Positions 5,311-63,100 of a stretch of DNA of 64,000 nucleotides are shown here, one piece after another. Under the pieces are notes generated by a model. The model searched no databases. It saw only the letters and a list, made by a program, of their open reading frames with translations, and was not told the origin of the DNA. The position numbers were made by a program, and so were the translations under genes. Position 1 is the first letter of the stretch; the number at the start of each line of letters is the position of its first letter. Source of the DNA: Dehalococcoidia bacterium (lineage in GTDB: Bacteria > Chloroflexota > Dehalococcoidia > Plut-88900); NCBI GenBank assembly GCA_965249275.1, contig CBDFLQ010000007.1, positions 896,001 to 960,000 of the forward strand. Reading direction: 5' to 3'.

Positions 5311-5430
5311 GCTCACCCTGAGCCCCATCGAAGGGTCGAGCAGGGGGGTGGTCCCGCACTGCCAATCCGTCGCGCCCGCCTCCACCCCAACCCCCTTAAC
5401 CCTGTCATTCCGAGGCTCCGCGAGGAATCT
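5311..5430. repeat. Cluster of REP-like short palindromes
   Basis: GCTCACCCTGAGC..TCGAAGGG.CGAGC (5311-5341) and TGTCATTCCGAGG..CGCGAGGAATCT (5403-5430) resemble REP-type hairpins; only single copies in window. Confidence 0.45.
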
Positions 5431-5432
5431 AG

Positions 5433-6628
5433 GAAACCTCTGAACAAGTCTAAGGGCATAGGTAATAGGTAAGATAGGGAGAGTAAGGCCAAAGCTGAGG
5501 TGAGATTTGATGGAGCAGCCGACATTTGCAGACTTGGAATACGAGGGCAAGAAGCGAAAGACCCGCCGGGAGATATTTCTGGAGCGGATGGAGGACCTGG
5601 TTCCATGGGGAAAGTTAGAGGAGCGAATCCGGCCCTACTATTCCAGGGCGGGCCGTGGACGGAGGCCCTACGAGTTGTCGGTGATGCTGCGGATACACTG
5701 CGTGCAGCTGTTCTACAACCTGAGCGATCCGGGCATGGAGGACATGCTCTACGAGGTGGAGTCGGTGAGGCGGTTCGCAGGTCTGAGGCTGTCCGGCCCC
5801 TTGCCTGACGAGACTACGATACTGAACTTCCGCCATCTGCTGGAAGAGCAGGAGTTGGGTCGGGGGCTGTTCGAGGAGATCAACCGTCATCTGGAGTCTC
5901 GGGGACTGAGGCTCAGGGAGGGTACGATTGTGGATGCGAGCATCATCGAGGCGCCGGCGTCTACGAAGAACCGTGCTGGAGAGCGAGACCCCGATATGCA
6001 CCAAGTGAAGAAGGGGAAGGAGTGGCACTTCGGTATGAAAGTGCACATTGGTGCAGACGCTGACACGGGGGTGGTGCACAGTATGAGTACGACAGCTGCG
6101 AACGTGCATGACGTGACGGAGGCGCACCGGCTGCTGCATGGAGGGGAGAGGCGAGTGTGGGGAGATGCGGGATATCAGGGAGTGGAGAAGCGGGCGGAGA
6201 ATCGGGATATGGATGTGGAGTGGCGGGTGGCGATGAGACCTGGACGGCGTCGGAAACTGAGGGCGGGGAGCTGCGAGGCCTTAGCGGAGAAGAGCAAATC
6301 ATCCATCAGGGCTAAGGTGGAGCATCCGTTCCTGTACGTGAAACGGCACTTCGGCTACGCCAAGGTCCGCTACAGGGGCTTGTACAAGAACACGCAACGG
6401 GTGGCGATGCTGCTGGGGCTGGCCAACTTGGTAAGGGCCGAGCGCCACTTAGCGGTGTGACGGAGGAGCAGTGTGGTCAAATCCGGGTCGATGGTGACTG
6501 GATGCCCTGACAGGCCAGAACATAGGATGCAAATAAGCCACCGAGACGCAACATTACGACCCAACCTCTCCCCAAAACTCCATGCAAGACAACCTAAGCT
6601 GGTTTACAGTGAGTTGTTCAGAGCTTCC
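5433..6628 (+). mobile_element. IS5-family insertion sequence, copy 1 (1196 bp)
   Basis: IRs GAAACCTCTGAACAAGTC / GGAAGCTCTGAACAACTC, flanking CTAG duplication (5429-5432, 6629-6632), near-identical copy at 50485-51680. Confidence 0.95.
5507..6460 (+). CDS. IS5-family DDE transposase
   Basis: PDETTILNFRHLLE, IVDASII, GMKVHIG.D, WGDAGYQG, RAKVEHPF...KVRYRGL.KN. Confidence 0.97.
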   Translation: MMEQPTFADLEYEGKKRKTRREIFLERMEDLVPWGKLEERIRPYYSRAGRGRRPYELSVMLRIHCVQLFYNLSDPGMEDMLYEVESVRRFAGLRLSGPLPDETTILNFRHLLEEQELGRGLFEEINRHLESRGLRLREGTIVDASIIEAPASTKNRAGERDPDMHQVKKGKEWHFGMKVHIGADADTGVVHSMSTTAANVHDVTEAHRLLHGGERRVWGDAGYQGVEKRAENRDMDVEWRVAMRPGRRRKLRAGSCEALAEKSKSSIRAKVEHPFLYVKRHFGYAKVRYRGLYKNTQRVAMLLGLANLVRAERHLAV

Positions 6629-6685
6629 CTAGGACTTGCCCTTTCACACCATTCCTCGCCTTCCTTTCCCTCCCCCATTGGTAAC

Positions 6686-6726
6686 GATATATGAGCCATG
6701 TTGCAGAGCAACATGGCTCATATATC
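6686..6726. repeat. Perfect 19-bp inverted repeat with 3-nt spacer
   Basis: GATATATGAGCCATGTTGC-aga-GCAACATGGCTCATATATC. Confidence 0.9.
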
Positions 6727-6807
6727 AATAAAACAGGGCGGGTGGGCGGGACTCAATATATCCCTGAGGGTGGTGAGGGGTGTCCCCCCAAATGTGACAC
6801 GAACCCC

Positions 6808-6837
6808 TTGACCAGAGTTGTACACATGTACTATATT
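6808..6837 (+). promoter_or_regulatory. sigma70 promoter with LexA-type operator
   Basis: TTGACC-18 nt-TATATT; GTAC-acat-GTAC (6820-6831) abuts the -10; same layout at 53593-53622. Confidence 0.7.
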
Positions 6838-6842
6838 CACCC

Positions 6843-7460
6843 CCGACTAGCTCGTCACTCACCCTAATCCCAAGGAGGAACCACAACCCAGGGGGAACCA
6901 CATCCCCGGCCCACACGAGGACTCAACGTCCAAGCCCATCCCAAAGGGCGGCCCACACGCCGCCCCACGGCTCAAGCAAACGCCGCCATCTCCTCATACC
7001 AAGGGCCCCGGCTCACCCCTCCCCCCACCACCCAGGCGATGGAAGGTCCACAGACTATGCTCGGCAGGCCCCGTCCAGGGCCCCTGCCGATTCAACGCTT
7101 CCCATTACCGGATGCGTTTACCCCGGCCCATTGCGCGCCGGTTTCCCGGGTAGGTCAACCAACCCCCGGTTTAGCAAGGTCCTCGTGTCCTTGTTTGTCC
7201 CGCCATCCCCGCCATCCGTCTACCCGGCGGATGCACCGGGACGCCGGTTATGAAAGTCCGCCTCAGGCGGTATCTTCCCCGTCAGCGGTCCGGTCAAGTG
7301 CCGCTGCCGGTAGGATCGGCCCCACACAACCCTGACCGCAGCCGACAACATGTGGGGATAGTCCAGCCCGGTGCCGACGGCTCGGCAGCAACCCCCGGTC
7401 TGAATTCTAGTCACCGGACCTTCCATCGCCTGCCCCCTACAAACAAAACGGAACCCCAAA
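6843..7460 (+). ncRNA. Candidate large structured ncRNA, copy A (unassigned family; ends approximate)
   Basis: Collinear sequence blocks shared with 52950-53587(-); 17-bp perfect long-range stem 7033-7049/7416-7432; many internal hairpins; no conserved ORF. Confidence 0.6.
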
Positions 7461-7565
7461 CGCCAACTGAATAAACACCGTCCCCTCCCCCTGGTTGCGT
7501 GATACACTTCATCCAACCCCATCCCCTGAGCCTTTCCGCCATCCCTTATGGAGGTGCCGACGCCC

Positions 7566-8552
7566 ATGAATTACGACATGGAGATACCAACCAGCCGGGA
7601 AGCGGTCTTCGTGCCGATTCCATTCGCCGGGCCCAAAGAGATAGTGAAGATAGTCCAGGACGCCGAGAAGCTCGGCTATCACGCCGTCTGGGGCACCGAC
7701 TTCATGACCCTGGCCCCGGGCGTATCCCCCCTGGAAGACCCTGACCCGCCCAACTGGTACGAGCTCATCGTGTCCCTGTCCTACCTGGCCGCCGTCACGG
7801 ACAAGATCATGCTCGGGACCGGCGTCGTCCTGCTCCCCTATCGGGACCCGATAATCCTGGCCCGGCAGATCACGACTCTGGACCACTTCAGCAACGGCAG
7901 AGTTGCCTTGGGAATAGGGCTCGGCAACCGAGCCGAGTACGAGATGGTCCAGCCCAAGATGCGCAAGGTACACCGGGGCCGCATGCTCGACGAGAAGATG
8001 GAGGCCTTGCATCAGCTCCTCGGACACTCCGAGCGCGCCGTCAGTTATTCCGGCAAGTACGTCGAGTTCCGGGACGTGGAGATATTCCCGAAGCCTGTGC
8101 AAAACCCGCTTCCCATGTACGCTCCGGGTCGGAACCCGGACGCCCTAAAACGCATAGCCAAGTGGGGCAATGGACTCTTCACGGCGGCCTCGGCCGGTCG
8201 GAGCGCCATTGACGCCTTGGAGCCGCTTCTGGAGCAGCAGGGCCGCAGCCTGGACGAGATCCACGTCATCGCCGAGGGTGAACTGAGCCTGGGATCTACC
8301 CACGAGGAAGCTGTGGAGCACTACCGCAACAGCATGCAGGGGCAGTTCCGTCTGGCTAAAGGCTTCTCCCTGGACAATATCGTGGAGCAGAACTGGATCG
8401 GTACCGTCGACGAGGTGGTTGATAAGATTGGTCAACTGAAGGACTTGGGCATCAACCACGTTAACGCCCTTCACATCGCCGGAGACACCATACCGGAGAT
8501 GATGGAGCAAGTGGAGTCGTTCGCGAAGGACGTGATGGCCAATGTGGGATGA
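7566..8552 (+). CDS. LLM-class (luciferase-like) flavin/F420-dependent oxidoreductase
   Basis: AEKLGYHAVW..D, LGTGV..LPYRDP..LARQ..TLD..SNGR..LG.G.G, PKPVQ; SD GGAGGT before ATG 7566. Confidence 0.92.
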   Translation: MNYDMEIPTSREAVFVPIPFAGPKEIVKIVQDAEKLGYHAVWGTDFMTLAPGVSPLEDPDPPNWYELIVSLSYLAAVTDKIMLGTGVVLLPYRDPIILARQITTLDHFSNGRVALGIGLGNRAEYEMVQPKMRKVHRGRMLDEKMEALHQLLGHSERAVSYSGKYVEFRDVEIFPKPVQNPLPMYAPGRNPDALKRIAKWGNGLFTAASAGRSAIDALEPLLEQQGRSLDEIHVIAEGELSLGSTHEEAVEHYRNSMQGQFRLAKGFSLDNIVEQNWIGTVDEVVDKIGQLKDLGINHVNALHIAGDTIPEMMEQVESFAKDVMANVG

Positions 8553-13557: not shown

Positions 13558-13918
13558 AAGTCGGGAGAGGCTTTTACCAGTTCGAATCCAGGCAGGTGGA
13601 CTCCGACACTAAATCCCGCTTACAGTGGCGCTACCGCGGCGGCTTTTCACCGCCTTCCCTATTCTCCCTGGATGGGCACCTGAACGGGGAGTGGTCTGTG
13701 TTTATGATTTGGAGTTGAGGATATTGGCACGGGAGCGAAGTGTCAAGGGTCGGCATTAGTACGGGATTTCTGTTGCTTTTGGCTATGGCGTGGTTACACA
13801 ATGTTGCGTGATTTGGCAGGTAGGCGACATCATCTGTAAGCCGAGCGAGATAACAGCACTGTTTTGCGACTGAATCGGGCGACATTGTTCCGCTACGCCA
13901 CGAGGATTTCCAGCTAGC

Positions 13919-35824: not shown

Positions 35825-35915
<91 letters not shown>

Positions 35916-43097: not shown

Positions 43098-43172
43098 GCC
43101 CCCGTAGCTCAGAGGATAGAGCGCCAGCCTCCGGAGCTGGAAGCGTGGGTTCGAGTCCCGCCGGGGGTACCA
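43098..43172 (+). tRNA. tRNA-Arg(CCG)
   Basis: GCCCCCG acceptor stem, CCAGC-CT-CCG-GA-GCTGG anticodon arm, GGTTCGAGTCC, 3' ACCA. Confidence 0.97.
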
Positions 43173-50452: not shown

Positions 50453-50484
50453 TCCCGGCCGGGTCTTAACGGTTGACGATCTAG

Positions 50485-51680
50485 GAAACCTCTGAACAAG
50501 TCTAAGGGCATAGGTAATAGGTAAGATAAGGAGAGTAAGGCCAAAGCTGAGGTGAGATTTGATGGAGCAGCCGACATTTGCAGACTTGGAATACGAGGGC
50601 AAGAAGCGAAAGACCCGCCGGGAGATATTTCTGGAGCGGATGGAGGACCTGGTTCCATGGGGAAAGTTAGAGGAGCGAATCCGGCCCTACTATTCCAGGG
50701 CGGGCCGTGGACGGAGGCCCTACGAGTTGTCGGTGATGCTGCGGATACACTGCGTGCAGCTGTTCTACAACCTGAGCGATCCGGGCATGGAGGACATGCT
50801 CTACGAGGTGGAGTCGGTGAGGCGGTTCGCAGGTCTGAGGCTGTCCGGCCCCTTGCCTGACGAGACTACGATACTGAACTTCCGCCATCTGCTGGAAGAG
50901 CAGGAGTTGGGTCGGGGGCTGTTCGAGGAGATCAACCGTCATCTGGAGTCTCGGGGACTGAGGCTCAGGGAGGGTACGATTGTGGATGCGAGCATCATCG
51001 AGGCGCCGGCGTCTACGAAGAACCGTGCTGGAGAGCGAGACCCCGATATGCACCAGGTGAAGAAGGGGAAGGAGTGGCACTTCGGTATGAAAGTGCACAT
51101 TGGTGCAGACGCTGACACGGGGGTGGTGCACAGTATGAGTACGACAGCTGCGAACGTGCATGACATGACGGAGGCGCACCGGCTGCTGCATGGAGGGGAG
51201 AGGCGAGTGTGGGGAGATGCGGGATATCAGGGAGTGGAGAAGCGGGCGGAGAATCGGGATATGGATGTGGAGTGGCGGGTGGCGATGAGACCTGGACGGC
51301 GTCGGAAACTGAGGGCGGGGAGCTGCGAGGCCTTGGCGGAGAAGAGCAAATCATCCATCAGGGCTAAGGTGGAGCATCCGTTCCTGTACGTGAAACGGCA
51401 CTTCGGCTACGCCAAGGTCCGCTACAGGGGCTTGTACAAGAACACGCAACGGGTGGCGATGCTGCTGGGGCTGGCCAACTTGGTAAGGGCCGAGCGCCAC
51501 TTAGCGGTGTGACGGAGGAGCAGTGTGGTCAAATCCGGGTCGATGGTGACTGGATGCCCTGACAGGCCAGAACATAGGATGCAAATAAGCCACCGAGACG
51601 CAACATTACGACCCAACCTCTCCCCAAAACTCCATGCAAGACAACCTAAGCTGGTTTACAGTGAGTTGTTCAGAGCTTCC
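50485..51680 (+). mobile_element. IS5-family insertion sequence, copy 2 (1196 bp)
   Basis: Same IRs as copy 1; CTAG duplication at 50481-50484 and 51681-51684. Confidence 0.95.
50559..51512 (+). CDS. IS5-family DDE transposase
   Basis: Identical to 5507-6460 except HDVT to HDMT. Confidence 0.97.
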   Translation: MMEQPTFADLEYEGKKRKTRREIFLERMEDLVPWGKLEERIRPYYSRAGRGRRPYELSVMLRIHCVQLFYNLSDPGMEDMLYEVESVRRFAGLRLSGPLPDETTILNFRHLLEEQELGRGLFEEINRHLESRGLRLREGTIVDASIIEAPASTKNRAGERDPDMHQVKKGKEWHFGMKVHIGADADTGVVHSMSTTAANVHDMTEAHRLLHGGERRVWGDAGYQGVEKRAENRDMDVEWRVAMRPGRRRKLRAGSCEALAEKSKSSIRAKVEHPFLYVKRHFGYAKVRYRGLYKNTQRVAMLLGLANLVRAERHLAV

Positions 51681-51705
51681 CTAGAACACCCCTGCACCCT
51701 TTAGG

Positions 51706-52245: not shown

Positions 52246-52949
52246 TGTGTACCCTTCAATCTTAGGCTGCCCCGGGCGACGGAGCGAGAAGCTCCGTCGG
52301 TATGATTCGTTGCTAGTGCGTCGCTCCGCGTCATCGCCGCTTTCCTTCCTCCAATTGTTCTTGAAGTTGGGCCAACGTACGCATAATAATTTAGCGAGAG
52401 AGTTGTCAGGCTAGATAGTCCTGTTACAGACGGTAGGCTCCGTGCAGGATTGATCGTATGGCCAGTTTTCTTCAGCCTTTTATCCTTCCAGCCCGCTGTA
52501 TTGCCCTTGACTGGCGCCCAGCTGATCGGCCAATCTCAATCCTCTAAGCTAAGCTGCCTTTGTGCACAGCGTAGATAACCTAAGGCGAAGGTCGCGGGAA
52601 TTGAGGGTGGGGATGTGGGGGGCGCTAGCACTGTGACGAAATACGTTTGGGGAGAAGCAGGATGATTTCGGCTTGCTGGCCGTGGGAGCAGCCAGCACAA
52701 CCCTCATGGTTATGCCGTCTGTGGTCATCGTGCATTCCCTAGAATTACTGCACTCCGTGTCCCATTCCAAGCCCACCCAAACATGCCCAGTATAGTTGGT
52801 CGGCAACGAAGACCTGCCCCAGAATGCTGGAGCTTGATGTAGTCGTGGGTCAGTCTACATCGCCAAGAGGATGTGCCGCAAGCTGATGTATTCGTTCGAT
52901 AGATTAGTGACACACTGGCCTTTTCTTCAGTCCTCCAGAGGCGGATCTT

Positions 52950-53587
52950 CGATTGTGGGGTTTCGGTTTCAGTTCTGTCTGTTAGGTTTTGGGAAGGCGA
53001 TGAAAGACGCTTGCTGGATTCGGCTCCCTACATTTAGATAATGCGGGCTAGGAGGCGTCCCGGGAGCGTGGGACGGGGCTCCGCCGCCGCCTAGACCTGG
53101 AAGTATGGTCGGACGTACGGGTCCGTCATCCGTCATAGGCTCCGATGCAGGGTTGGCTGCGCTGTCCGCCTGAGGCGGGTGCAGGAAGGGGAAAGTCCAG
53201 GGTCAGTTCCCCTCGCAGGAGTACGGGGTATCCAGTTAGCCGACGATGTCCCGGAGCCGGGAGACGGCGGCAGCCCAGTTTATTTGAGGAAGCGGACGGA
53301 GAGCCGAGCGGGCCTCGGCTACGGGCTGCCCCGTTCCGCTCCGTAGGACGGGTTGCTCCGTGAGGAGACTTTTAAGTACGATCCAGGGCGTCTTCCATCG
53401 CCTGGGGGTCAGGGAAGGGGGCACGGGACCCGGTGGGGATGAGGAGATGGCGACTTTCGCTTGTGCCGCGGGCCTGCGCGGGGGCCGTTGGGATGGGCTT
53501 AGGCGTTGAGTCCTCGGGCGGGTCGGGTGGGCTCCCCTGGGTGTTGGGTTCCTCCTTAAGGTAGTTGGGTTAGGTGGTCTAGACCTG
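52950..53587 (-). ncRNA. Candidate large structured ncRNA, copy B (unassigned family; ends approximate)
   Basis: Collinear blocks shared with 6843-7460(+); 16-bp stem 53388-53403/52995-53010 with compensatory changes and one G-U on the minus strand. Confidence 0.6.
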
Positions 53588-53592
53588 GCTAC

Positions 53593-53622
53593 AATATAGA
53601 ACATAAGTACTTATAATGTCAA
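53593..53622 (-). promoter_or_regulatory. sigma70 promoter with LexA-type operator
   Basis: Minus strand TTGACA-18 nt-TATATT; GTAC-ttat-GTTC (53599-53610) abuts the -10. Confidence 0.8.
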
Positions 53623-53961
53623 GAGGGTGATGCCACCCCTCTATGTGAACGGGATCAGCTGATGTATATCCTTAACAATAGGGTGTCGCTGCTAGCTCAA
53701 ACTAAAAGCATCATAGATTTATGATGATATAATCAACGACCAGATGGCCCCACCACTGGTCGAGAGATGTTCGGCTGGCAATCGTCAGGTCAAAAAATGG
53801 CGGACCCGGCTTACTTTGAGGTCACCTCAATTAAGCTGGGAGCATTTTGGACTGGATCTTCGGACCACGGAAACCTCGTGCGGGCGATTAGAGTGTCATA
53901 AGGACCTGCCCGCGTGAGATTGCGACTGTTCCTCTCGTCGCAGGGTGTTGGAGATTAGCAG

Positions 53962-57159: not shown

Positions 57160-60100
57160 ATGACGGTGGGGGCGTTGCTTTTGGGGACTGCAGCGGTAGT
57201 TGTACCTGATATGGGTCCAGATGCGCGGCACTCCTTAGCACTCGAGTCGCCAACGCTGCACATCGAATGGAGAGACCATTCCATCGATACCCACAGGGAT
57301 AACCCCATCCGATTTAACGATGCCTCTATATCGTCCACCGGATCTGAGGTCAACCCTGCAGGCATAAGGGATGCATGGAACTACTATCGTGACCTCGACC
57401 CAGCTCAGACCAGTGACGGCACTCTATTTAATCTCCGTTTCAGCCCAGTGGAACACTGGAACGGGGACAGTGCAGATCCCAGCAATCTAAGCAAAACTTG
57501 CCCTAGCGGCCCTATGCTTACTTCCCTCACCGTGAGCGCTGGCACTCTCTCCCCCACTTTCAGCGGTGACGATGTGGAGTACACCGTACCAGACGTCCCA
57601 TATTCCACTCGAACCCTCACTATCACCGCCACCGCGGGGCCCGGCATCGATGGCCCCTACTTTTATGACGTTTCGTGGAAACCGCTGGAAGACCTGGACG
57701 AAATGACCCCAGGCCACCAGATATCCCTCGCCGTAGGGGAGACGACGGTCAATGTAAGCGTGTACAAGGGAGATCCTTACCGAGACTACACCCTAGTCAT
57801 AACCAGATCCAAACCCACGGTCAGCATCCGGGCCTTAACCACGGGACCTGCTATCGAGGGCGACACGCTGCAGTTCGAAATAAGTAGATCCTCCGCTGCG
57901 GCCGACGCCTTGGCTGTACGGGTGGCCGCGGATGAACTCGACGCGATCCCAGGCGAAGTCCACGATGACATTCTGCCTGACTCTGCGGAAGATAAGTCGC
58001 CCCTGTACTACATCGAGGCTGGTGATTCAACTGCAATATTGGAGGTTGAGACGACTGGAGACGAGATATGGGAGAACCACTCAAAAATCGAGATGAAGAT
58101 AGTGAGCGACGACTTGTACATCATTGACACGGAAAGCAGTCGGGCCTCGGTTGTCGTGAAGGATGATGAATTCGTGGAGTCGGAGGCCGTGCTCAGCGTC
58201 TCTCCCAATCCCATCGGCGAGGGCATGGGTGAGACGATAGCCACCATCACAGTGACTACGAAAGGGGACAAAAGGCCCCACGGCAAGGTCACTATTCCCC
58301 TAACCACCTCCGATGGCACGGCCACCTCGGGGGAAGATTATACGGAACTGGACACGACTCTAACTTTCGCCGAGTCGGACTTCGCCCAAGTCGACCTGGA
58401 TGGCAATACTCGATACCGAGCCATCAAAACCGCTGACATCTCCATCACGCAGGACAGCGTTGACGAAGACATTGAGTCCTTCAGTGTCGGCATGGGCACC
58501 CCCTCCAATACGCTAGTCACTTTAGAGTCAGGCTCCGCCGATACATCTGTCACGATTACTGACGATGACGTGACTGTAACGCCTCCAGTCCTCACTGGCT
58601 TGATCATCAACCCTGGCACGCTAACTCCAATGTTCTCCTCCGGCCATCTCTCCTATAACGTCCCCGACGTTGGGTATGGGACTCATCTTATAACCATTAC
58701 CGCCACACCCGAGTCAGGTGCCGAAGTCTCTTTTCTGGACTCTTCCAATAGCGTCCTCGTCGATCTCAACGATATGACCGAAGGTCAGCAGGTATCCCTC
58801 AAGATAGGGCAAACCTCCGTCAAGGTGAGAGTAGCCAAGGGAGGAGTCACTCAAGACTATACCCTCGTTATGACAAGGGCAAAGCCCACTATCAGCATTA
58901 GTTCCTTGACCACCGGGCCCGGCACCGAAGGCGACACCCTCAGCTTCGAGTTGAAGAGGTCTATAGCTGCAGGTGACGTCTTAGCCGTTAGTGTGGCCAT
59001 CAGCGAACTAGGAGTTGACGCTGACTCCGACCCAGGCGATCTCTTCCCTGACTCCGAAGAAGGGGGTTCACTGTCATACGAAATCGCAAGTAACGAGACC
59101 ACGGTCACTGTAGAAGTGGAAACCACAAGGGATAACGCTTGGGAGAACCACTCCAAGATTCAGGTTAAGGTCGTAGCGGACGACCTTTATGCCATTGATT
59201 TAGAAAGTGGCACTGCCTCGGTTGTCGTGAAGGATGATGATTTCGTGGAGTTGGAGGCGGTGCTTATCGTTTCTCCCAATCCCATCGGCGAGGGCATGGG
59301 TGAGACGATAGCCACTGTGACCATGACTACAAAAGATGACAAGAAGCCCCACGGCAAGGTCACTATTCCCCTAACCACCTCCGATGGCACGGCCACCTCG
59401 GGGGAAGATTATACGGGGACTGACACCACGTTAACTTTCTCCGAGTCGGACTTCGCCCAGATCGACCTGGATGGTAATACTCGATACCAAGCCATCAAAA
59501 CCGCTAACATCTCCATCACGCAGGACAGCGTAGACGAAGACGATGAGTCCTTTAATGTCGGTATGGGAACCCCCTCCGATACGCTAGTTATTTTAGAGTC
59601 AGGCTCCGCCGATACATCTGTCACGATTACTGACGATGACGATCCACCTATCCTTACTTCCCTATCCCTCAGCGCCGGAACACTCACCCCTACCTTCTCC
59701 TCCAGCCATCTCTCTTATAACGTCCCCGACGTTGGGTATGGGACTCATCTTATGACTATTGTCGTCGCCTCTGAGTCAGGCACTTCGGTGTCCTTCCTTA
59801 ACTCTTCCAATAGCGACCTCGTCGATCTCGACGATATGACCGAAGGTCAACAGGTATCCCTCAAGATAGGGAATACTACCGTCAAGGTGAGGGTAGCCAA
59901 GGGAGGAGTTACTCAGGACTACACCCTCGCCATTACAAGGGCAAAGCCCACAGTCAGCATTAGTTCCTTGACCACCGGACCCGGCACCGAAGGCGACACC
60001 CTCAGCTTCGAGTTGAAGAGATCTATAGCCGCAGGTGACGTCTTAGCCGTTAGTGTCGCTATCGGCGAGCTAGGTGTTGAAGCCGACTCCGACCCAGGCG

Positions 60101-63100
60101 ATCTCTTTCCCAACTCCGAAGAAGGGGTGTCACTATCATATGAAATCGCAAAGAACGAGACCACGGTCACTGTAGAGGTGGAAACAACAGGGGATAACAG
60201 CTGGGAGAATCACTCCAAGATTGAGGTTAAGGTAGTGGCGGGCGATTCCTACACTATCGACTCAGAAAGTGGCACTGCCTCGGTTGTCGTGAAGGATGAT
60301 GATTTCGTGGAGTCGGAGGCAGTGCTTAGCGTCTCTCCTAATCCCATCGGCGAGGGCATGGGTGAGACGATAGCCACCATCACAGTGACGACGAAAGGGG
60401 ACGAAAGGCCCCACGGCAAGGTCGCGATTCCCCTAACCACTTCCGACGGCACGGCCACTTCGGGGGAAGATTATACGGAACTGGACACGACTCTAACTTT
60501 CGCCGAGTCGGACTTCGCCCAGATCGACCTGGATGGTAATACTCGATACCGAGCCATCAAGACCGCTGACATCTCCATCACGCAGGACAGCGTTGACGAA
60601 GACGATGAGTCCTTTAGTGTCGACATGGGTACACCATCCGATACTCTAGCCATCTTAGACTCGCGATCAGCCAACATATCCGTCACGATTACCGACAATG
60701 ACGATCCACCTGTCCTTACTTCCCTATCCATCAGCGTCGGCACACTCACCCCTACCTTCTCTTCCAACCAGCTCTCCTATGACGTCCCCAATGTAGCGTA
60801 TGGGACTCATTTGATAACCATTACCGCCACACCAGAGTCCAGTGCCGAAGTCTCTTTTCTGGACTCTTCCAATAACCCTTATGAGGATCTCGACGATATG
60901 GCCGACGGCCACCAAGCCTACCTGGAGATTGGCAAGACTACATTGAAAGTTCGGGTTGTCAGGGGAGACTCGGCGCAAGACTACAGCATGGCTATAACAA
61001 GGGCCAAACCCTCGGTCAGTATAAGAACGTTGACTGACAATCCCGCCACAGAGGGCAACTTGCTGCGCTTCGAGATAGAACGGTCCGAGGCGGCTGGGGA
61101 CGTACTTGAAGTGCGGGTGGGAATGGACGAACTGGATGTGATTGACGAACAAGGGCACGGGGACATTCTCGCAGACGCCATCGAAGACACCTCCCCGTTC
61201 CGGGAGATCGCGCCGAATCAGGCTACGGCAGTGTTCACCGTGGAGACTGCCGGCGACATCGTCTGGGAGGAACATTCCTTGATCGAGATGAAGATCAAGC
61301 CCGAGGATTGGTACAGCATAGATGCTGCCGCGGGAACAGCCACTATAGTTGTGGAGGACGATGATTTACCGGAGTCTGAGGCTGTGCTATCTGTATCACC
61401 TAATCCTGTTAACGAGGGTAAAGGCCAGGCAACTGCGACCATCACCGTAACCACGGAATACGACCAAATGCCTCATGGCCAAGTCTCGATTCCCATCACA
61501 ACCTCGGACGGATCTGCAAAGGCTGGCGAAGACTACGCGGAGTTAAGCGACAGCCTAGTCTTTGCTGGACGGGACTTCTCTGCAATTCAGATAAATGGCG
61601 ACACTTTCTATCGAGCAGCCAAAAACGTGGGCATTGCGATAGTCCACGATAATGTAGACGAGGAAGCGGAGACCTTTAATGTGATGATGGGCTTGCCCAG
61701 CCAAAGCATCGTCGGTGTAGACTCGGATACCAGGATTGTCTCAGTAACCATTGACGATGACGATAACAGCAAGCCAACAGTCACAGTTACCACTTTACCT
61801 TCCCCGGCGAGCGTGTTCGGGCGTGGAGTTGTCACTCTCGACGGCGAGTCTAGCGACTCCAACGAGGCTACGCTCACTTACCTCTGGACCACGACTCCAG
61901 CGGAAATTGGCGAGTTTGGCGACGACAAGATGGAGGACACTACATGGACGGCTCCCGCCCCCCTTGCTGAGGTCCAGACCGTGATCTTGATCCTCACCGT
62001 GACTGACAGTGGCACACCGCAAGAGCAGGGGACAGCTACCGCTTTCGTGACGGTGCAGGCCAATCAGGGTCCGTTTGCTAAAGCTTCCGCATCGAGCGAC
62101 ACCGTCCAAGGTGATGGGATAATCGCACTTACCGGCAGTGGGGCTGACCCTGAGCAAGGCCCCATCACCTATACATGGTCAGGTGACGGAACCTTCAATA
62201 ACGCCGATGCCAAGGACACCACATGGACTGCTCCTCGAGCCACCAACCGGGAGCGGCCCATCACCCTGACCTTGACCGTCACCGATGAGTTAGAGGTGAG
62301 TGATACGAGCGTAGTACAAATCATCGTGGCTGCGGTGAACAGCACGCCTTCGTTTCCCGTGGCCGAAACGGGTGAGCGCTACGTGGATGAAGGAAGCGGG
62401 GCAGGAGACAACGTGGGCGAGCCGGTAGAGGCTGTAGACGAAGAAGGTGATAGCCTCACCTATATACTGAGTGGGATGGATGCTTCGTATTTCGTGATCG
62501 ACGGCACAGGGCAGATAGGGGTGGGGAGCACCACAACGCTGGACTATGAAATCAAGGTTTTATATGCGGTGACTGTATCAGTGTCAGATGGCAAGGATGC
62601 GCACGGAAACACTGACTTAAGTGTGGACGACGCTATAGGAGTTACCATCAGAGTGGTCGATGTTGAGGAGGACGGTAACGTATTGCTCTCACCGTTACCG
62701 CCGCAGGTGGGCGAGGTAATGACTGCTAGGGTGATGGACTCAGACAACTACATTCCGCCCGATAACTTGGGGCTCATTCCCGCCAGCGCTGTCGAGTCCT
62801 GGTTATGGGAGCGTTCTAACGATTCCGACGAGCCTTGGGTGACCATAGCCAACACGACAACAGACAGTTATGCATTGGTGGTTGCCGATATGGGTAACTA
62901 TCTACGGGCTACGGCTACGTATACCGACCGCAGGGGTCCGGATAAGACCGCAAGCGGGGTGTCGGGGGAGGTGGCGCCAGGCATACCTTCCGCTCCAATT
63001 GCGCCGATGGCTGCTTATCACCATGCCGTCATGGGTTTGGAGGTGAGCTGGTCCCCGCCTTTAAGTGATGGAGGTGACCCAGTTATTGAATATTTGGTGC

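Follow-up and report, generated by a model that had tools for sequence, protein, structure and literature searches.

A candidate non-autonomous transposon with a structured-RNA cargo beside host promoters in one genus of Dehalococcoidia

Two copies of one element in the window

The window, that is, the whole stretch of DNA analyzed here, covers 64,000 nt (positions 896,001 to 960,000 of the forward strand) of contig CBDFLQ010000007.1 in assembly GCA_965249275.1. Its source is a Dehalococcoidia metagenome-assembled genome (MAG; G000) of 2.9 Mb in 7 contigs, which is 87% complete. Two intergenic regions of the window hold related copies of a non-coding element, copy A on the plus strand and copy B on the minus strand, which a preliminary description had put forward as a new family of large noncoding RNA (ncRNA) genes. 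The element is not simply such a gene family, and it is relabeled here as a promoter-seeking non-autonomous transposon with a structured-RNA cargo.

The shared blocks of that description were found where it had placed them and in identical order in both copies. They are AAGGAGGAACC (6872-6882 in copy A and 53547-53557 in copy B), CGAGGACTCAACG (6916-6928 in copy A, given as 53504-53516 for copy B), AAGCCCATCCCAA, CGCCATCTCCTCAT, CCCAGGCGATGGAAG, the CCGCCTCAGGCGG hairpin and a CA-rich tail. The units are slightly longer than first delimited, with copy A extending over ~6790-7474 and copy B over 52887-53657. Their first 250 nt at the 5′ side align almost without gaps and their middle parts do not align. 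The similarity of the two copies is far beyond chance.

Copy A begins with a GTGACA box (6794-6799, plus strand), located 8 nt upstream of the −35 hexamer and corresponding to the inner part of the left-end module of copies that bear terminal inverted repeats (TIRs). The remainder of this module is absent from copy A, and so is the right module. The promoter TTGACC-18 nt-TATATT (6808-6837) shows 10/12 matches to the consensus, and a putative transcription start lies near 6844-6853 on the plus strand. The 5′ domain follows (6870-7045; covariance-model match of 133 bits), with AAGGAGG, the nested helices P1-P2-P3 (GAGGA/UCCUC), a hairpin of variable sequence which here reads GGGCGGC/GCCGCCC, and an end at GGCGATGGAAG. 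The 5′ strand of a closing helix, CAGGCGATGGAAGGTCC (7033-7049), pairs with its complementary 3′ strand, GGACCTTCCATCGCCTG (7416-7432). Between the two strands is a variable interior (7050-7415), which is predicted to be multi-branched, holds the CCGCCTCAGGCGG hairpin and belongs to interior type 1 (21 members among 129 copies). A C/A-rich and G-poor tail with the terminus CAACTGAATAA (7433-7474) concludes the copy, with no right-end module after it.

Copy B, read on the minus strand, carries both ends. In detail, a left target-site duplication (TSD) TCAGC (53658-53662) precedes the left TIR TGATCCCGTTCACATAGAGGGGTGGCATCACC (53624-53657), and the promoter TTGACA-18 nt-TATATT (53593-53622) shows 11/12 consensus matches. 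The 5′ domain (53392-53559; 172.6 bits) is followed by the closing helix GGCGATGGAAGACGC ... GCGTCTTTCATCGCC with its enclosed variable interior of type 0 (52996-53402; 23 members), and by a C/A-rich tail with one inserted CCGCCTCTGGAGGA unit (52914-52995). The right TIR GTGTCACTAATCTATCGAACGAATACA (52887-52913) is followed by the right TSD TCAGC (52882-52886), equal to the left flank, and by the host −35-like hexamer TTGCGG (52876-52881). Shuffled versions of the two regions yield 0.3-0.5 promoter sites comparable with the real ones of copies A and B. The genes beside the two copies (a luciferase-like monooxygenase, an LppX_LprAFG lipoprotein and an unrelated IS5-family insertion sequence) are unrelated to each other, in agreement with the preliminary description.

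The proposal that the element is multicopy was correct for the family as a whole, which numbers ~54 copies in the genome and not two. A BLAST search of G000 with copy A returned 48 matches, 12 of which are further near-full-length copies of 86-95% identity, and an nhmmer search with positions 6800-7050, promoter included, gave 54 copies (E 7e-66 to 9e-17). One of these is truncated where its contig stops. In each of the remaining 53, the 5′ strand of the closing helix is followed 299-531 nt downstream by the 3′ strand.

Beyond G000, blastn located the domain in 8/8 other genomes of the genus, in 0/3 other genera of the family and in 0/29 other families. With the covariance model the 5′ domain was found in G000 and 4/4 sampled genus members; in samples searched under strict filters, it was found in 0/2 other genera of the family and in none of ~145 other Dehalococcoidia genomes. 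A pattern scan of species-representative genomes provided at least 82 loci, and all those listed are on six chromosomes of 3.0-3.4 Mb named "MAG: Dehalococcoidia bacterium". In the respective scan of metagenomes, 71 of the 77 loci were chance matches, and the six that scored with the model are all on short contigs of one whole-genome shotgun project. The family is specific to this genus, with many copies at orthologous sites across several of its species. It occupies ~1% of these genomes and should not be called as genes in annotation.

Structure, coding potential and transcription of the RNA unit

For the comparisons that follow, 129 unique full-length copies were pooled, some from G000 and the others from loci in the remaining eight genus genomes (nine genomes in total), and the 52 full copies of G000 were used for counts of end modules and neighboring open reading frames (ORFs). 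The presence of an own promoter, noted at the outset for copies A and B, extends to the family, since a sigma-70-type promoter is retained in 124 of the 129 copies. GTGACA, with at most one mismatch, is found within 16 nt upstream of the −35 hexamer in 99 of these 124. The motifs GAGGACTCAACG, GCCCATCCC, TCTCCTC and GGCGATGG are invariant or nearly so, even in copies which are ~72% identical overall, and the 5′ domain has the invariant loops CUCAACG, AAGCCCAUCCCA, CAAGCGAA and CGCCAUC.

The proposed fold consists of the nested helices P1, P1b, P2 and P3 (GAGGA/UCCUC) around a central hairpin and a small hairpin. It was examined in 102 copies (98 distinct; 28 pairs) aligned to the covariance model of the 5′ domain, an alignment fitted to this structure. 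Pairing cells amounted to 88.8%, versus 83.4 ± 0.3% after shuffling. Pairs changed on both sides were 17 versus 11.6 ± 1.2, cells changed on both sides 158 versus 51.4, and the covariation score was 0.165 versus 0.084; none of 500 shuffles reached the observed value in any of the four measures. When the 3′ partners were slid by 1-3 columns, the score fell to 0.006-0.046. P3 never varies.

Independently of any alignment, the central hairpin has the same start offset in 83 distinct versions with at least 8 stem sequences, for instance GGGCGGC/GCCGCCC, GAGCGGC/GCCGCTC, GGTCGC/GCGACC, GGCCC/GGGCC and GGC.CTGC/GCAG.GCC. The inner extension of the closing stem exists in mutually exclusive complementary versions (GTCC/GGAC, ACGC/GCGT and AAGCCC/GGGCCT). 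In 120 of the 129 copies the own 40-nt arms of the closing stem fold better than swaps between types (means of −40.4 vs −34.2 kcal/mol). G-U pairs occur at several positions, which favors RNA folding of this strand over a DNA cruciform. The whole-RNA fold of copy A has a minimum free energy of −242 kcal/mol (z −5.3) and that of copy B a z of −3.2, with 0/20 shuffles as good in either case. A secondary structure with compensatory changes is thus borne out by the pair counts, the hairpin variants and the arm swaps.

At least 13 interior types were distinguished by clustering at 75% identity. Orthologous copies can show interiors of 57% identity beside flanks of 96%, in a segment comparison that anchoring errors made too noisy for an argument on selection. 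The presence of different interiors at one orthologous site shows that the copies recombine. The element that G003 holds at the site of copy A is of another interior type. Separately, a repeat family of ~6 copies with the sequence ...CCCGGTCCACGTGACCGGCTATGGAAGGTTCCCGGAC... has the core ATGGAAGGT.C in common with the closing stem and lacks a 5′ domain upstream (C5:157240, C5:477563, C5:38574, C5:502056, C6:946789 and C7:453635 in G000).

A search of the window with Rfam cmscan at gathering thresholds gave no match to the element, in line with the preliminary description; in E-value mode, the best values for both copies were 0.6-9, far below gathering scores. Known families, namely OLE, GOLLD, ROOL, HEARO, group I and II introns, riboswitches, 6S, RNase P, tmRNA and signal recognition particle RNA, are hence not represented at that threshold. 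A riboswitch is also disfavored by the unrelated downstream genes, the lack of a terminator-like site and the 15/52 copies which have no co-directional ORF. A sponge of the CsrB/RsmZ type was considered for its GGA motifs and rejected, since a search of G000 (87% complete) gave no CsrA (PF02599). The omega RNAs of IS200/IS605 and the bridge RNAs of IS110 were rejected as well, because there is no ORF inside the element, no tnpB or DEDD recombinase beside it, and TIRs and a TSD are present.

The element does not encode a protein. Its strand is poor in T (A.205, C.401, G.238, T.156), which explains why some copies are free of stops over their full length, up to 223 codons. These open frames, together with the invariant Shine-Dalgarno-like AAGGAGG, are what could suggest a family of small Pro/Thr-rich proteins starting after AAGGAGG or at the ATG of the stem. 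However, no ATG, GTG or TTG is within reach of AAGGAGG in copies A and B, and the stem ATG opens a 98-aa ORF in copy A (7039-7335) and only 8 codons in copy B, exactly as first reported. The 13 closest aligned copies show no codon periodicity (0.087, 0.090 and 0.104 by phase), their gaps are mostly of 1 nt (n = 52) or 2 nt (n = 35) and less often of 3 nt (n = 16), and the open frame is not the same between close copies. With no conserved frame or codon-type substitution, a protein-coding gene is ruled out as practically without likelihood. No transposase ORF lies inside the element either; on both points the preliminary description was right.

The tails average 41% C and 11% G. No intrinsic terminator was found in copies A and B. 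Rho-dependent termination at the tail is something we infer; Rho was found in 8/8 other genomes of the genus, but its RNA-binding domain was not found in the incomplete (87%) G000 assembly.

Assembled contigs of two metatranscriptomes (X19 and X20) were compared with two runs whose library kind is not on record and which are taken as DNA (X1 and X2). Contigs of X20 cover 6853-7010 and 6964-7430 of copy A, and one of X19 covers 6966-7301. None of them covers 6500-6852, and uncovered parts are not evidence in such contigs. X1 and X2 cover 6622-6865 at ~1/4 to 1/2 of the peak depth over the 5′ domain. The depth of X20 is 1.6 in 6805-6865 versus 99 in 6927-6987, and that of X2 in the same bins is 2185 versus 4353. 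This pattern is a weak hint which fits a start just downstream of the promoter.

Ends, target duplications and host promoters

About one-third of the copies, including copy B, start with TGATCCCGTTCACATAGAGGGGTGACA and end with GTGTCACTAAYCTACCGAACGAGTACA, two sequences with TG...CA termini that are inverted repeats of each other. A TIR is formed by the left end TGATCCCGTTCACATAGAGGGGTGACA together with the right end, whose reverse complement is TGTACTCGTTCGGTAGGTTAGTGACAC; it is present in copy B and not in copy A, and in the copy-B form the TIRs are imperfect over ~27-34 bp. The 5 bp outside both ends are identical (TCAGC for copy B). The TG...CA unit has a length of 739-902 bp (median 796). 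Among the 129 copies, the left module occurs in 23, the right module in 44 and both in 22. In the two-ended copies the 5-bp flanks match at 5/5 positions in 13 cases and at 4/5 in another 5, versus a 5/5 match in 2.5% when the partners are shuffled.

The earlier statement that no terminal inverted repeat belongs to the element is consequently wrong for copy B, where TIRs, TG...CA termini and the 5-bp TSD lie just outside the limits first given; copy A has neither end module. Terminal repeats or target duplications had been named there as the mark of a MITE (miniature inverted-repeat transposable element), and in the copy-B form both were present.

Three empty sites in G000 are opposite to filled sites in sister genomes. 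In the first, ATGCTTTCG^TTGACAGCC, TTTCG is single when the site is empty and perfectly duplicated in the filled allele. The second is CCAAAA^TTGAGCC and the third is directly 5′ of TTGAAC-N17-CATAAT. In all three the insertion point is immediately 5′ of TTGACA, TTGAGC or TTGAAC. A reverse search for more empty sites among element-bearing loci found none, these loci having been chosen for holding the element. The site of copy B is filled in G000 and G002, and in G003 and G005 the last ~20 bp of the right end stand alone, which we read as a probable deletion derivative. Another solitary end, a left one (TGATCCCGTTCACATAGAGGGGTGACATCAACCCC), is found at C6:928830 (minus strand) of G000 directly before the −35 hexamer of the groES-groEL promoter, which has a CIRCE-like operator (TTAGCACTC-N9-GAGTGCTAA). 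It may be what a deletion has left of an insertion, or an upstream region that was co-opted.

A large part of the family has no such ends. Of the 52 full copies in G000, both modules are present in 17, only the right in 6, only the left in 1 and neither in 28, copy A included. The end-less copies retain the GTGACA box and the promoter as well as the 5′ domain, the stem and the tail, which argues that the RNA unit is maintained and not the transposition ends alone. Either the TIR-less copies are old insertions that retained the RNA unit as their ends decayed, or the RNA gene is the older part, one lineage of which was taken up between the ends of a transposon.

The latter leads to an alternative in which the family consists of chromosomal ncRNA genes that were spread by duplication or recombination, with the TIR form as a secondary capture between transposon ends. 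The 28 end-less copies agree with it, and so do the many orthologous sites and the structural covariation. Nevertheless, clean insertions with 5-bp duplications and empty sites exist, at least 50 dispersed copies by unrelated genes are hard to produce without transposition, and the confinement to one genus is more in keeping with a mobile element of recent origin than with an RNA gene of long standing. This origin is thus regarded as unlikely. Of the initial inference of an independently transcribed RNA gene, the promoter-driven, structured and non-coding nature was upheld; a simple, independently evolving RNA gene family was not, in view of the TIRs, the TSDs and the filled and empty sites.

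The right ends reveal where the insertions are placed. In 42 unique right ends, positions +6 to +10 after the terminal ACA are occupied by T (37), T (34), G (36), A (28) and C (29). TTG is at +6 to +8 in 27 of the 42, versus 1.4% of random genome positions, and TAnnnT follows at the spacing of a −10 box in 38 versus 3.5%. Both are found together in 24 of the 42 ends, versus 0.04%. Since the empty sites already hold the hexamer, it is part of the target, not of the element. Two copies are directly before promoters of tRNA genes. According to a crude ORF call, 37 of the 52 copies have a co-directional ORF downstream and 34 a divergent ORF upstream. Based on the enrichment of the hexamer and the −10 box at the right ends, the empty sites and the co-directional ORFs, the insertion is 5 bp upstream of the host −35 hexamer and oriented toward the host gene.

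Such a position could also be that of a mobile cis-regulatory leader, which adds a promoter and a riboswitch- or attenuator-like leader that reads through into the host gene. The common direction of element and host promoter, the 37 co-directional ORFs and the lack of an intrinsic terminator in either copy speak for it, and at copy A the native promoter region that G001, G002 and G005 have is replaced. On the contrary, the downstream genes are unrelated and no expression platform was found, 15 of the 52 copies have no co-directional ORF downstream, and the RNA contigs of the element and of the downstream gene are separate with no cover over 7476-7536. A leader function is accordingly very unlikely.

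At the site of copy A itself, a comparison of 7475-7567 with the corresponding loci L133, L134 and L136 shows that G000 lacks the TATAAT-containing region which G001, G002 and G005 have upstream of the luciferase-like monooxygenase, the homology ending ~20 nt before the ATG of this gene. Since this region is lacking, the monooxygenase gene of G000 may depend on read-through from the element or on an unrecognized promoter.

The same TIRs, TSDs, high copy number and genus restriction would be expected of an ordinary selfish MITE without RNA function, in which the promoter is incidental or drives the neighbor and the helices derive from DNA inverted repeats, nested MITEs and shared descent. The closing stem, being an inverted repeat of 15-17 bp, might represent the TIR of an element nested inside; nesting of other small repeats within the element is in fact observed, in two copies between the left end and the promoter; and the evidence for transcription is weak. 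However, the internal motifs GAGGACTCAACG, GCCCATCCC, TCTCCTC and GGCGATGG are conserved more than the TIRs, and the promoter is retained in 124/129 copies even where the ends are gone. Covariation of the short hairpins extends over at least 8 stem variants, and G-U pairs occur. The pair of the closing stem is always downstream of the 5′ domain in the examined copies, a scan for it outside the element being cluttered by chance matches and by the palindromic nature of the motif. A purely selfish MITE is therefore considered improbable.

Proposed transposon and its relation to known elements

The transposon and the RNA gene are not mutually exclusive readings, as the element looks like a transposon with an RNA gene as cargo. 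The reading to which we give a probability of about 0.68 is that of a genus-specific, high-copy, non-autonomous transposon of the MITE or mobile insertion cassette type, whose cargo is a promoter-driven, non-coding gene for a structured RNA of ~600 nt. Its intact form has the order TG... left inverted repeat, sigma-70-type promoter, 5′ RNA domain of ~170 nt, closing stem with a swappable interior of 300-530 nt, C-rich and G-poor tail, and ...CA right inverted repeat. On insertion it duplicates 5 bp of the target and comes to lie 5 bp upstream of a host −35 hexamer, reading toward the host gene. The C-rich tail might serve as a Rho entry site, ending the transcript before the host promoter. The RNA would act in the spread or persistence of the element itself or, alternatively, modulate the adjacent host promoter. 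Mobilization would depend on a transposase supplied in trans. TG...CA ends and a 5-bp duplication suggest transposition of the DDE type, and a DDE-type, trans-mobilized element is the most likely case judging from these sequence features.

Several points weigh against the transposon with an RNA cargo. An autonomous partner with these ends was not found in G000, the only genome scanned, and the similarity of the IS481-like and IS30-like rve transposases of this genome to the element is limited to TGTA...ACA-type termini. More than half of the full copies in G000 (28/52, copy A among them) are without both end modules, and no consistent boundary repeat or TSD was found for the TIR-less form. As for the RNA, the pair counts come from an alignment that had itself been fitted to the proposed fold, the shuffle controls overstate the significance because the copies are related and recombine, and at the DNA level, too, the closing stem forms an inverted repeat. 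The Rho RNA-binding domain was not found in the 87%-complete G000. The RNA contigs were assembled from relatives and give no strand, true ends or level, and with ~3-12 in the RNA runs, the depth ratio of the element to the flanking genes is below the ~50-90 of X1 and X2.

In the search for a mobilizing partner, every TGWWCYCGTTC end in G000 proved to be a copy of the element or a chance match within a gene. The genome has 22 rve-domain transposase genes, namely IS481-like (2 + 8 copies) and IS30-like (12 copies) ones. The ends of these insertion sequences begin with TGTA and have 15-17 of 27 positions in common with the right end of the element, which is not enough to name either of them as the likely partner. 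Both the IS30-like (329 aa, 12 copies) and the IS481-like (381-401 aa, 10 copies) sequences sit in hairpins similar to repetitive extragenic palindromic (REP) sequences (C7:510553, C7:521651, C6:525070, C7:460031, C7:248501 and others), often 1-3 kb from copies of the element. One IS481-like copy is found between the divergent element copies C7:247760 and C7:250579.

The window also contains two copies of an IS5-family insertion sequence of 1206 bp (5427-6632 and 50479-51684), near-identical over the compared parts and encoding a 317-aa transposase (DDE_Tnp_1 and DUF772). They lie near the element, ~170 bp upstream of copy A in one case and ~1.2 kb beyond copy B in the other. The ends of this insertion sequence, CTAGGRAANCTCTGAACAA, bear no relation to those of the element, which rules it out as a partner, and its proximity to the two copies is therefore coincidental.

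Bacterial MITEs and mobile insertion cassettes share with the element TIRs and a short TSD, the lack of a transposase gene, the scattering of many copies over intergenic DNA, and sites that differ between genomes in being filled or empty. MITEs are defined as measuring 50-800 bp, with TIRs of at least 10-15 bp and TSDs of 2-10 bp (PMC11602168), and the 739-902 bp of the element straddle the upper limit. The element differs further in that its best-conserved part is the internal promoter and RNA domain and not the ends. Moreover, no cognate autonomous insertion sequence was found in G000, the insertion at the −35 hexamer is specific in position and orientation, and more than half of the copies are end-less.

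Correia elements of Neisseria are small, TIR-bounded, high-copy repeats of ~100-150 bp, which duplicate a TA target. They reportedly carry promoters, and in bringing promoters next to host genes they are similar to the element. To our knowledge, they have no long covarying structured-RNA cargo, and we know of no report of their targeting a −35 hexamer.

The closest functional precedent is ssr9 of ISPpu9 (IS110 family) in Pseudomonas putida, described as a small-RNA gene that spreads as a selfish module via the ISPpu9 transposase acting in trans (PMC12288879); a mobile RNA gene and a transposase in trans would be the features in common. However, ssr9 has ~8 copies, which move as IS110-type minicircles into REP sequences, without TIRs or a 5-bp TSD (PMC12288879). 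The element described here differs in having ~54 copies, termini of the TG...CA type, a TSD of 5 bp and targets close to promoters.

Large structured RNAs such as OLE, GOLLD, ROOL, HEARO/omega RNA and raiA are several hundred nt long, have covarying helices, and their functions are unknown or were recently found. These RNAs occur in one or a few copies or accompany a protein gene such as TnpB. The element is comparable with them in size and in its conserved covarying helices, and unlike them it has 54 copies, no associated ORF and no Rfam match.

By analogy, the fixed position upstream of transcription units recalls the long terminal repeat retrotransposons Ty3 and Tf1, which are guided by transcription factors and insert just upstream of transcription units as a "safe haven", whereas the element is a bacterial DNA element. 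A bacterial version of such a transposon might use the RNA as a cofactor or guide, together with the trans-acting transposase or with promoter-bound RNA polymerase and sigma-70, to direct the oriented insertion 5 bp upstream of the −35 hexamer. This is quite unlikely; if true, it would mean an RNA-dependent, promoter-targeting DNA transposition without an own protein gene.

If the transposon with a structured-RNA cargo is confirmed, it joins features that are usually seen apart, namely a MITE-like transposon, a large covarying promoter-driven RNA, and a precise and oriented insertion by the −35 hexamer. It would offer a natural system for how a bacterial transposon recognizes promoters and show an RNA gene riding or driving a mobile element, and its ~50 extra promoters and long upstream transcripts would reshape expression in an uncultured Dehalococcoidia lineage. 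A limited literature search returned no paper which describes the element or a bacterial transposon targeting the position 5 bp upstream of a −35 hexamer, and none joining Dehalococcoidia with miniature inverted-repeat elements.

Other short repeat families crowd the same intergenic regions, as in 6740-6790 of the window and upstream of C7:250579, C5:665799 and C6:922571 in G000. Examples are the GTCATTCCGAGGCTCCGCGAGGAATCTGG hairpins, the GTAGGGGCGACCGGCCGGTCGCCC hairpins and CCTCTCCCTCTGATGGGAGAGGGCTAGGGTGAGGG. Between the left end of the element and its promoter, a repeat unit of ~215 bp with the terminal sequence ...CCCCCCAAAAGTGTGACA is nested. Elsewhere in the window, cmscan matched only two tRNA genes (35828-35915 on the minus strand and 43098-43169 on the plus strand) and a cobalamin riboswitch (13574-13698, minus strand; 47.2 bits), all of them above the Rfam gathering scores. 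Four tandem units of ~1062-1071 bp, 64-85% identical to a reference copy, occupy 58042-61536.

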